DNA of 64,000 nucleotides, from contig JBBIML010000014.1 in NCBI GenBank assembly GCA_037444405.1, positions 32,001-96,000 on the forward strand. The letters are read 5' to 3'. Below, piece after piece: positions 7,106-9,483 of the stretch. Under the pieces are notes generated by a model that searched no databases, was not told where the DNA came from, and was given only the letters and a program-made list of their open reading frames with translations. A program made the translations under genes and the position numbers. The stretch is from Armatimonadota bacterium. Lineage in GTDB: Bacteria; Armatimonadota; Fimbriimonadia; Fimbriimonadales; GBS-DC. Numbering within the stretch: the stretch's first letter is position 1; the number at the start of each line of letters is the position of its first letter.

Positions 7106-7777
7106 TCAGGCGCGCACCGGCTCAAATATCTGCAAACCCGCGCGGTTCCAGTCGTCCAGAAACCGCTGGAGCCCGATATCGGTCAGCGGATGGTGGAACA
7201 GCTGTTCCAACACCTTGAAAGGCATCGTGGCGATGTGTGCGCCCAGCCGCATCGCCTCCACCACATGCATCGGATGGCGGATGCTGGCGACCAGCACCTC
7301 ACTGGGGAAGCCATAGTTTTCGACCATCTGCACCACATCTTCGATTGTGCGCATGCCCTCGCTGGCAACATCGTCCACGCGCCCGACGAACACGCTGATG
7401 AAAGTGGCGCCCGCCTTCGCCGCCAGCAGTGCCTGCGCGGGCGAAAAAACAAGCGTCATGTTGATGCGGATGCCTTCGCGGGAGAGGATGCGGGTTGCTT
7501 GAACGCCGGCGGGCGTCATCGGAATTTTGACCACGATGTTGGGCGCCCAGGAGGCAATCTCACGCGCCTCGCGCAGCATCTGATCCACCGTGGTGCCGAC
7601 CACCTCCGCGCTGATGGCGCCCTCGGGCACAAGCCGACACATCTCTACCACCGTCTCTTTGAACCCGCGCCCCGCTTTAGCAATCAGCGAGGGATTGGTG
7701 GTCACGCCATCGATGATGCCCCACTCGGCGGCTTGCTGAACCTCTTCGATCTGCCCTGTGTCCACGAACAGCTTCAT
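7106..7777 (-). CDS. tal: Transaldolase / fructose-6-phosphate aldolase family
   Basis: LFVDT, GVTTNPSL, VVKIP, NMTLVFS, ASIRHP; GAGGTG SD before MKLF. Confidence 0.92.
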   Translation of the reverse strand: MKLFVDTGQIEEVQQAAEWGIIDGVTTNPSLIAKAGRGFKETVVEMCRLVPEGAISAEVVGTTVDQMLREAREIASWAPNIVVKIPMTPAGVQATRILSREGIRINMTLVFSPAQALLAAKAGATFISVFVGRVDDVASEGMRTIEDVVQMVENYGFPSEVLVASIRHPMHVVEAMRLGAHIATMPFKVLEQLFHHPLTDIGLQRFLDDWNRAGLQIFEPVRA

Positions 7778-7794
7778 GCTGACACCTCGCACAC

Positions 7795-7868
7795 TGGCTG
7801 CCGGGGGTGGATTCGAACCACCACTACGGGATCCAAAGTCCCGCGTCCTGCCCTTAGACGACCCGGCA
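7795..7868 (-). tRNA. tRNA-Gln (anticodon TTG)
   Basis: Cloverleaf: TGCCGGG acceptor, CGGGA-CTTTGGA-TCCCG anticodon arm, TTCGAAT T-loop, encoded CCA. Confidence 0.95.
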
Positions 7869-7945
7869 TCGGTTCCGATTATACCTGCTCAGTGCCTGCC
7901 CCGCAAAGAATACGGTTTTTTGCCAATCCCCGTAAGAGTATAGAA

Positions 7946-8110
7946 GTGCCGGGCGGGCGAAAGTGGCACGATACCATCAGCAGCGGGGTCAAGCCCCGAG
8001 ATGGCGAGTGGCAACCGCGGTGGCGGAGTAGTTGAAACGGCTCTCATCAGCACCGTCCAGCGCCACCGCCACACACCCCCTGCGGGACGCTTTTCCGCAG
8101 GGGGCTTTTT
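7946..8110 (+). ncRNA. Candidate structured ncRNA of unknown family
   Basis: Three hand-folded stems plus a possible pseudoknot; -10-like GTATAGA just upstream; own terminator; no + strand gene downstream. Confidence 0.55.
8076..8110 (+). terminator. Intrinsic terminator
   Basis: CCCCCTGCGGGA / TTCCGCAGGGGG stem followed by CTTTTT. Confidence 0.85.
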
Positions 8111-8112
8111 AT

Positions 8113-8149
8113 AAAAAGTGAGAGGCGGGTGGGGAGGAGCCCGCCTCTC
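8113..8149 (-). terminator. Intrinsic terminator (minus strand)
   Basis: GAGAGGCGGG / CCCGCCTCTC 10-bp stem followed on the minus strand by ACTTTTT. Confidence 0.8.
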
Positions 8150-8217
8150 TTCGGGGTAGGGGAGGTGCGACCAAGTTTAGCAGGAGGTTCTCTGGTCAAC
8201 CTGTACCCTGTCGCCAC
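8113..8217 (-). ncRNA. Candidate ~100-nt sRNA with three CCUCC anti-SD motifs
   Basis: Lies between a sigma-28-like promoter and a terminator; contains ACCTCCT, ACCTCCC and CTCCTCCCC. Confidence 0.5.
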
Positions 8218-8223
8218 TCTCGA

Positions 8224-8251
8224 TTATCGGCAGGTTGCCCCGAAATTTTTA
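8224..8251 (-). promoter_or_regulatory. Sigma-28 (FliA/SigD/WhiG)-like promoter
   Basis: TAAA-N16-GCCGATAA on the minus strand, overlapping the tatD stop codon. Confidence 0.6.
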
Positions 8252-9016
8252 GGGGGTTTTTGAGAGAAAGGCGTCCACATTCGCCTCGGTCTGCGCTGAT
8301 AGCTCGTCCAGCGGCATGCTCCAGAGTTCTGCGACATGGTGGGCAATCAGGGGCAGGTAGGCGGGTTCGTTGCGCCTGCCCCGATAGGGATGGGGCGCCA
8401 GGTAGGGCGCGTCGGTTTCTAACAGCAGGCGGTCGCGCGGCATCTGGCGCACAATCGCTCGCAGCGGCTCGGCGTTTTTGAAGGTAATCACGCCGCCAAT
8501 GCCCAGATAGTAGCCCATCGTCAGCGCGCGTTCGGCATGAGCCTCCGTGCCCGAAAAGCAGTGCAACACGCCGCGCACCGGCGAATATTCCGACAACACC
8601 TGAAGCAGCGGGTCATACGCCTCACGACAGTGAATGATCACGGGCAGCCCGCGCTCCTGCGCCAGCGTCAGTTGCGCGTGGAACGCCTCGTATTGTGCCG
8701 CGCGGGGCGACCAATCACGGTAAAAATCGAGCCCGATTTCCCCGATTGCGACCACGCGCGGATGCTGACTCAGCGCGCGCAACCGCTCGAGGGCGTCGGG
8801 CGTGCAGGCAGGCGCGTCGTGCGGATGGATGCCGACCGCTGCCCACAGCGCGGGCGACTGTTCGGCAAGCTGCACAGCGCGCTCACTGCTGGGCAGGTCA
8901 TAACCAATCACGATCAGTCGCGCCACGCCCGACTGCTGCGCACGAAAAAGAGCCGCCTCCCACTCCGAAAACAGCTGCTCGTGATTGAGATGGCAATGTG
9001 TATCAGTCCACTGCAT
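8249..9016 (-). CDS. tatD: TatD family hydrolase
   Basis: DTHCHL, GIHPH, IGEIGLD, IIHCRE, LHCFSG, LLETDAPYL; start trimmed to MQWTD. Confidence 0.94.
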   Translation of the reverse strand: MQWTDTHCHLNHEQLFSEWEAALFRAQQSGVARLIVIGYDLPSSERAVQLAEQSPALWAAVGIHPHDAPACTPDALERLRALSQHPRVVAIGEIGLDFYRDWSPRAAQYEAFHAQLTLAQERGLPVIIHCREAYDPLLQVLSEYSPVRGVLHCFSGTEAHAERALTMGYYLGIGGVITFKNAEPLRAIVRQMPRDRLLLETDAPYLAPHPYRGRRNEPAYLPLIAHHVAELWSMPLDELSAQTEANVDAFLSKTP

Positions 9017-9215: not shown

Positions 9216-9308
9216 TGGCGGAGAGGGTGGGATTCGAACCCACGATCCCCCTTGTGGGAGGATTCCCGATTTCGAGTCGGGCCCGTTCAACCGCTCCGGC
9301 ACCTCTCC
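9216..9308 (-). tRNA. tRNA-Ser (anticodon CGA)
   Basis: GGAGAGG acceptor, CCCGA-CTCGAAA-TCGGG anticodon arm, long variable arm, CCA. Confidence 0.95.
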
Positions 9309-9324
9309 CTGTGAGGTAGGGTTC

Positions 9325-9400
9325 TGGCGCCCTCGGAGGGATTCGAACCCCCGACGCCCTCCTTAGGACGGAGGCGCTCTATCCACTGAGCTACGAGGGC
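9325..9400 (-). tRNA. tRNA-Arg (anticodon CCT)
   Basis: GCCCTCG acceptor, CCTCC-GTCCTAA-GGAGG anticodon arm, CCA. Confidence 0.93.
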
Positions 9401-9407
9401 GCACGGC

Positions 9408-9483
9408 TGGCGCGCCCGGAGGGACTCGAACCCCCGCCCTCAAGGTCCGCAACCTTGCGCTCTATCCTCTGAGCTACGGGCGC
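9408..9483 (-). tRNA. tRNA-Arg (anticodon GCG)
   Basis: GCGCCCG acceptor, CAAGG-TTGCGGA-CCTTG anticodon arm, CCA. Confidence 0.93.

Follow-up and report, generated by a model that had tools for sequence, protein, structure and literature searches.

The window, by which we mean the whole 64,000-nt stretch of DNA analysed here, is part of contig C14 of a 2.68-Mb genome (G000, 98.9% complete) that belongs to a family of the Fimbriimonadales (Armatimonadota). A predicted small RNA gene, RNA A, occupies the plus strand at about 8 kb, between minus-strand neighbours. Divergent from it lies a tRNA-Gln gene, with a transaldolase-family gene and peptidyl-tRNA hydrolase upstream of that; convergent to it lies a second small-RNA candidate, RNA B, beyond which a TatD-family gene is found. 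The features of the locus, in window coordinates, are the following.

7795-7868, minus strand: tRNA-Gln, the divergent neighbour of RNA A in the window.
7878-7883, minus strand: TATAAT box of the divergent minus-strand gene, conserved as GATTATACC (alignment).
7908-7944, plus strand: upstream block of RNA A with CCCCGTA[A/T], the presumed promoter (alignment of 25 loci).
7945-8112, plus strand: RNA A, a predicted stand-alone small RNA of ~168 nt (covariance model R1 and terminator, without a conserved ORF).
7945-7964, plus strand: variable, purine-rich 5' region of RNA A, containing the 5' strand of a proposed helix P1 and a proposed "bulge" (alignment).
7965-7972, plus strand: conserved motif GGCAnnAU, GGCACGAT in the window and GGCATAAT in most relatives (alignment).
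7984-7998, plus strand: conserved small hairpin CGGGG-loop-CCCCG, GGGG-GAAA-CCCC in most relatives (pair counts and MFE folds).
8003-8025, plus strand: two G-rich segments, GGCGAGTGGC at 8003-12 and GCGGTGGCG at 8017-25, both complementary to the C-rich portion of the invariant block.
8041-8073, plus strand: invariant block CTCTCATCAGCACCGTCCAGCGCCACCGCCACA (alignment, RNAalifold).
8076-8112, plus strand: intrinsic terminator, a stem at 8076-8104 followed by CTTTTTAT (terminator scan, 64 homologues).
8117-8217, minus strand: RNA B, a second conserved small-RNA candidate of ~100 nt, convergent to RNA A (alignment, model R2).
8120-8149, minus strand: hairpin of RNA B, with a minus-strand T-run after it in the window.
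8224-8251, minus strand: putative RNA B promoter of the sigma-28 (FliA) type, TAAA-N16-GCCGATAA (pattern scan).
8252-9016, minus strand: TatD-family gene (PF01026, 278 bits).

Transcription of RNA A would end at an intrinsic terminator whose G+C-rich hairpin of 12 pairs, nine of them G-C, is the sole terminator-like site between 7700 and 8400; the T-run 3' of this hairpin is present on the plus strand only. In the homologue set of 64 distinct sequences, a T-run follows the stem in every case, 99.8% of cells in the stem are paired, and eight of its ten pairs never vary while the other two are compensatory. The alignment of 25 sequences (the window and 24 genomes of the family) likewise revealed an almost invariant stem sequence and a variable terminator loop. 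At the opposite end, CCCCGTA[A/T] stands ~10 nt 5' of the first conserved transcribed bases in the 25 aligned loci and is a presumed promoter, and the putative transcript start lies near 7945; a scan of 7700-8400 with the sigma-70 consensus found no promoter.

A conserved ORF was sought in the aligned homologues and none was found, nor are start codons kept. Indels of 1 and 2 nt occur directly 3' of the invariant block, and upstream indels are not multiples of three; together with the missing start codon, these changes exclude a reading frame. On the plus strand, no ORF of substance lies downstream of RNA A, whose flanks consist of divergent and convergent neighbours. An earlier reading of this DNA, made from its letters alone (hereafter the sequence-only reading), had proposed a stand-alone non-coding RNA with its own terminator, and the terminator at 8076-8104 with its T-run and the absence of a conserved reading frame agree with it. 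The same reading had argued against a riboswitch of a downstream plus-strand gene, correctly, since no such gene is present. We consider RNA A very probably an independent RNA gene.

RNA A is a single-copy gene in G000, where the covariance model R1, built on 25 sequences, matches 7940-8115 of the window at 149.9 bits. With R1, a single copy was detected in each of 26 genomes among the 28 of the family; the two without a match have completeness values of 65% and 68%. Across 122 genomes from four sister families R1 gave no real match; three weak ones (23-32 bits; L147-L149, from another family) were rejected, two being terminators at the ends of coding genes and the third aligning only in the terminator. 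BLAST of 7930-8115 against 40 relatives matched all 24 same-family genomes (E 6e-92 to 7e-8) and, in 16 genomes drawn from four other families, returned only matches of up to 35 nt (E 0.03-1). An exact-pattern scan placed 25 of 27 loci in hot-spring Armatimonadota/Fimbriimonadales MAGs (two labelled just "bacterium"), and the same pattern occurs in 52 metagenome contigs; two Rhodobacterales matches to it (L055, L058) show neither a terminator nor flanking similarity and were discarded as chance. Among the genomes searched, RNA A is confined to one family. In depth, this family is roughly comparable to the Enterobacteriaceae, judging from the CysS protein, which is 81-86% identical between the window's genus and other genera, and the lineage is known almost only from hot-spring metagenomes. 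We know of no earlier description of a small RNA from Armatimonadota, and full-text literature searches returned nothing relevant.

Within RNA A, the 25-sequence alignment contains no column conserved at 90% across the first ~20 transcribed bases (7945-7964), the exception being G/A at 7943-44. In the GGCAnnAU motif that follows, G26 and G27 are invariant and C28, A29, and A32 are conserved at 90% or above, and the G-rich middle then varies among genera in both length and sequence. Of the 25 sequences, 24 have the same 33 nt at 8041-8073; L032, the most distant of all, departs from them at six positions. This invariance is not circular for the 24 genome loci, which were retrieved with the whole 186-nt query; the metagenome sequences were collected with a pattern taken from the block and are unusable for judging it.

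The RNAalifold consensus leaves 8041-8059 unpaired, an accessibility that is predicted only, and the 3' half of the block is predicted to pair with the G-rich segments. For all 47 distinct middle regions, the best duplex with CCAGCGCCACCGCCACA lay between -16.6 and -23.8 kcal/mol, with a mean of -21.5 versus -16.6 for shuffles (mean z -1.7), and 25 of the 47 beat 95% of their own shuffles for a duplex with the C-rich half of the block, although these regions are related sequences and the tests are not independent. The register of the G-rich/C-rich pairing varies by genus, engaging GGCGAGUGGC, GGCGGAUGGC, or GCGGGAGGCGCUG, which fits a one-sided adaptation to an unchanging C-rich partner. In a plain MAFFT alignment, two metagenome contigs (L092, L104) carry a variant of RNA A with a deletion of ~25 nt that corresponds to the second G-rich segment, the block and terminator being kept; this segment, the 5' strand of the proposed helix P3, is therefore dispensable. 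The conservation of RNA A resides mostly in primary sequence (the 33-nt block and GGCAnnAU) plus one small hairpin and the terminator. Such a pattern is usual for a base-pairing sRNA, not for an elaborately folded RNA.

An elaborate fold had in fact been put forward in the sequence-only reading, and the complements listed for it are all present in the window: GTGCC 7946-50 with GGCAC 7965-69 (P1), CCATC 7974-78 with GATGG 8000-04 and CGGGG 7984-88 with CCCCG 7994-98 (the two parts of P2), GCGGTGGCG 8017-25 with CGCCACCGC 8061-69 (P3), and GGGCGG 7951-56 with CCGTCC 8053-58 (a long-range pseudoknot). We projected the six proposed helices, the terminator included (90.1% of cells paired), onto a model-based alignment of the 64 distinct sequences. 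P1 was paired in 46.3% of cells and the pseudoknot in 62.8%, and neither is a conserved feature: the full 5-bp partner of P1 and the full GGRCGG partner of the pseudoknot each occur in 3 of the 64 homologues, among these three the window and its 99%-identical sister, and both helices are absent from other species of the window's own genus. P2 was retained in part, since the CGGGG/CCCCG helix is paired in 77.5% of cells, with three core pairs in 62-63 of 64 sequences, while CCATC/GATGG is paired in only 43.1%. Swapping the strands of the latter among 39 distinct combinations and comparing means gave no significant co-variation (native -4.03 versus permuted -3.77 ± 0.20 kcal/mol; 10% of permutations as good). 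Similarly, P3 (73.5% paired) keeps five core pairs in 59-64 of 64 sequences, not the full helix.

Covariation among homologues, a check named in the same reading, brought out compensatory changes in the small hairpin and the terminator and almost none in the other helices. The hairpin at 7984-7998 is paired in 94.1% of cells, one or more sequences carry a change in both partners for three of its four pairs, and MFE folds predict it as well. The RNAalifold/Infernal consensus, made up of this hairpin, GG.GGC with GCCACC, GGC with GCC, and the terminator, is 98.4% paired, but most of its pairs never vary, and both-sided changes affect only 5 of 22 pairs (nine cells) in an alignment that had been fitted to the model. 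Folding energies are in agreement: the whole 173 nt reach a z-score of -3.03 against shuffles, a value due to the terminator, because 7945-8075 without it gives -0.75 (47 of 200 shuffles fold as well) and a distant homologue without it gives -1.48, no better than shuffles. The opposite strand gives -0.78. Comparison of the homologues indicates that RNA A is real and that its elaborate pseudoknotted architecture is not; the fold drawn earlier is conserved only in its terminator, in the GGGG/CCCC hairpin, and in the core of the G-rich/C-rich helix.

To look at expression, four hot-spring metatranscriptome runs were mapped at 80% likeness (the 16 listed runs hold 6-14% of sampled words). Contigs from three of the four (X9, X11, X14) cover the conserved 3' part of RNA A at 8036-8107, including short X11 contigs with a depth of 390-462 in bins 8036-8083 and a 68-nt X9 contig over 8041-8106, and all four runs cover RNA B. 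Since the contigs stem from relatives in other genera, the 5' two-thirds of RNA A are almost uncovered. The contigs carry neither strand nor ends and may reflect DNA in the libraries, so that the coverage is a weak hint of RNA A expression.

Comparison with known families gave no relative of RNA A. At gathering thresholds, Rfam 15 recognised only four tRNAs in the 64-kb window, and a permissive scan of 7860-8260 (E up to 10) placed nothing on the plus strand inside 7945-8112; the cmscan check proposed earlier thus returned no matching family. The sequence-only reading had also failed to match the element to SRP RNA, 6S RNA, tmRNA, or RNase P RNA. It was right in this, as the SRP, RNase P, and tmRNA genes of G000, and its best 6S-like match, sit elsewhere in the genome.

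C9:190672-190770: SRP RNA (71.1 bits).
C11:66178-66520: RNase P RNA (273.2 bits).
C13:111856-112206: tmRNA.
C11:105640-105821: best 6S-like match (RF00013; L038), 30 bits against a cut-off of 46.4.

The last of these is full-length though sub-threshold, and is probably the divergent 6S RNA of this lineage. RNA A resembles 6S RNA in length and in its one copy per genome, but 6S is a rod with a central bubble, and no such fold was found for RNA A.

Two further groups of small RNAs offer parallels in design. Hfq-dependent trans-acting sRNAs of Enterobacteriaceae, such as Spot 42, RybB, and MicA, are free-standing genes of 80-200 nt with an intrinsic terminator and U-tail; one stretch is conserved across genera while the rest drifts, and their range is roughly one bacterial family. 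RNA A shares the free-standing gene, the U-tailed terminator, the conserved stretch, the restriction to a family, and an hfq gene in the genome. It differs in phylum and shows no sequence or Rfam kinship with them, and its conserved stretch is long (33 nt) and adjoins the terminator rather than forming the 5' end. In the cyanobacterial small RNA Yfr1, two stem-loops enclose an ultra-conserved unpaired motif. As in Yfr1, an invariant and largely unpaired sequence lies between hairpins in RNA A and is conserved more strictly than the helices; RNA A has, however, roughly three times the length of Yfr1 and no sequence relationship to it, and no Rfam Yfr family matches it.

The minus-strand neighbour on the 5' side differs between loci. 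The position of RNA A divergent from tRNA-Gln, named in the sequence-only reading, holds in the window and in L009 and does not extend to the family: in 21 of 24 related loci the neighbour is cysS (PF01406) on the minus strand, consistently 59-63 nt away from the 5' side of RNA A. The ATG of cysS is preceded at 8-10 nt by a TATAAT box, which also stands ahead of tRNA-Gln in the window. This promoter stands between the element and the gene, and RNA A is therefore not the leader of a minus-strand gene. An analogous RNA before cysS was sought in the sister families f2 and f5, where coding sequence was found in that place (L150 and L151, respectively).

The convergent neighbour is far more constant. 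In 23 of 24 loci, RNA B keeps 83-98% identity over 100-140 nt and invariably lies 3' of RNA A in the same orientation, so that the two genes stand tail-to-tail in these loci while the genes beyond RNA B differ. The spacer ranges from ~4 to ~305 nt; the upper value comes from L013, where ~305 nt are inserted between the two, versus 4-77 nt in other genomes. In G004, RNA A and RNA B are on different contigs. Model R2 detects RNA B in 26 of the 28 family genomes, the same 26 as RNA A, and in 0 of the 122 others.

RNA B contains the anti-Shine-Dalgarno-like sequence CCUCC three times, twice in hairpin loops. Its best Rfam match is ar14 (RF02344; minus strand, 8070-8178) at 34.2 bits against a gathering score of 58.8, and with this score it is not a member. 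Nevertheless, cmscan aligns RNA B end to end with ar14, and the ar14 or CCUCCUCCC-motif sRNAs of Alphaproteobacteria are, like RNA B, built of CCUCC(CC) in hairpin loops and a linker, followed by a terminator. The two differ in phylum and in the sigma-28-type promoter of RNA B. We take TAAA-N16-GCCGATAA to be the consensus of sigma-28 (FliA). The pattern has only five sites in G000, another of which, nearly identical to that of RNA B, lies 15 nt before a flagellin ORF with a common spacer, GGGGCAACC(C)TGCCGATAA, and G000 encodes both FliA (245.5 bits) and CsrA. A duplex of either RNA with the flagellin leader was considered and rejected, given that 68% and 36% of random genome windows score as well for RNA A and RNA B, respectively.

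The gene-like anatomy of RNA A, its conservation pattern and phyletic range, the missing reading frame, and the presence of hfq in G000 (101.4 bits) are direct observations. On this basis, our favoured reading, to which we give about an even chance, is that RNA A acts by base-pairing in trans with the help of Hfq. In such a mechanism, RNA A would be transcribed independently as an RNA of ~168 nt and ended by its intrinsic terminator, and the invariant block just 5' of the terminator would be the functional core. The 5' half of the block, CUCUCAUCAGCACCGUCC, would be displayed unpaired as a seed, and its C-rich 3' half, GCGCCACCGCC, would be held in a helix with the upstream G-rich segments. 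The terminator hairpin, the U-tail, and the A/U-rich GGCAUAAU motif could serve as Hfq-binding and stabilising parts. Action in trans, the choice of seed, and the part given to Hfq are proposals; the contrast between a variable 5' third and an identical block is what the usual picture of a conserved seed and terminator would predict.

Scans of G000, extended to orthologues for a start-codon match, yielded no conserved complementary mRNA target site. The search was crude, k-mer-seeded, made in one genome, and free of an accessibility model. It gave 3,503 sites, the top matches being coding-like GGTGCTGATGGG strings and the locus itself, and for the unpaired half in particular the genome-wide complements were only coding-sequence-like GTGCTGATGGG matches. 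The complement of this half resembles a Shine-Dalgarno-like sequence, five nt, and ATG, and a scan of start sites for it gave 35 sites with up to five mismatches, one of them the locus itself. Two candidates were examined and dropped. A match of 13 contiguous nt at the start of an amylase-like gene (G000 C13:4323) is kept only in G000 and its sister G002 among 25 orthologous loci and is ascribed to chance; complementarity of the C-rich block to the first cysS codons, noticed by eye, involves a cysS 5' sequence that differs in the window's genus.

Several other explanations of the locus fare poorly against these data. A compact pseudoknotted RNA with P1, P2, P3, and the long-range pseudoknot, possibly catalytic, draws on the presence of every listed complement in the window and on the conserved hairpin and P3 core. 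Its defining helices are the ones lost among homologues (P1 and the pseudoknot partner in three sequences each, P1 and the first part of P2 paired in 46% and 43%), covariation is almost nil, and no Rfam ribozyme family matches either strand. Nothing points to a ribozyme, and we regard this model, which the comparison has already refuted in large part, as highly improbable. The same grade applies to a minus-strand 5' leader of cysS, for example a T-box-like element. The steady distance of ~60 nt to cysS in 21 of 24 loci speaks for it, but the intervening TATAAT box indicates a promoter and a transcript start with little or no leader, only the plus strand has a T-run after the hairpin, and neither T-box nor any other Rfam family matches on either strand; moreover, the neighbour is a tRNA in the window and L009, and the f2 and f5 genomes lack such an element before cysS. 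A small protein encoded at the RNA A locus is scarcely credible. The window does contain a 37-codon ATG ORF at 8001-8114, whose ATG is absent from other genera, and the frame is broken by the indels noted above; furthermore, all three codon positions are invariant in the block.

Further explanations concern the function of the RNA itself. Folding predictions pair half of the block, and the stem of the terminator hardly varies; neither point is accounted for by seed pairing alone, and both fit a protein-binding site just as well. RNA A could accordingly be a decoy, scaffold, or RNP component in which the block, the terminator stem, and the GGCAUAAU motif form a binding surface for a conserved protein. 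Thirty-three invariant nucleotides and an almost invariant 10-bp stem exceed the 7-12 nt that a seed needs, no mRNA target was found, and every reasonably complete genome of the family has one copy. We nevertheless think this unlikely: RNA A contains no repeated motif as in CsrB- or 6S-type decoys, no protein gene is co-located (the genes beyond RNA B change from locus to locus), and an elaborate conserved fold is missing. It is very doubtful that RNA A and RNA B work as a pair, through read-through, transcription collision, or RNA-RNA pairing, which would link RNA A to the flagellar (sigma-28) regulon. Their identical distribution, with no real match to either outside the family, and their convergent adjacency despite changing outer genes are suggestive, and most genera have no clean T-run after the RNA B hairpin, which makes read-through antisense to RNA A conceivable. 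The variable spacer, the separate contigs in G004, and a terminator-like hairpin on each RNA argue the other way, as does inspection by eye, in which no conserved trans complementarity was seen. A broader version would be a long shot: the two RNAs might be halves of one regulatory module born in this family, RNA B being a sigma-28-driven anti-Shine-Dalgarno mimic and RNA A a partner whose block and terminator dock a conserved protein or the translation machinery. If so, tail-to-tail coupling would let motile and non-motile states set opposite translational programmes, and RNA A would represent a new class of RNP or regulatory RNA beyond the seed-pairing sRNAs.

In sum, the sRNA gene of RNA A is new and restricted to one family, and a sigma-28-type partner adjoins it. 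The two candidate sRNA genes are well delimited and come with covariance models, an exact phyletic range, and a clear invariant core, and the flagellin-type promoter of RNA B provides a testable link to motility control. Otherwise, RNA A adds one to the lineage-specific bacterial sRNAs and opens no long-standing question.

Some minor observations concern the surrounding sequence. Both cysS and a secreted GH13-like gene have a TATAAT box just 7-10 nt ahead of the ATG and lack a Shine-Dalgarno sequence (sites compared: window 7869-7890; L012 and 20 other cysS loci; L170-L193 for the amylase-like gene), and both genes look leaderless across the family. At 7908-7925, between the cysS/tRNA TATAAT box and the upstream block of RNA A, a short inverted repeat is followed by a T-run; by eye it takes the form CCCGCA-N4-TGCGGG in some genomes and is weaker in the window, and it may be an operator or part of back-to-back promoters. 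Just beyond tatD, a minus-strand tRNA cluster (Ser-CGA, Arg-CCT, Arg-GCG) occupies 9216-9483.
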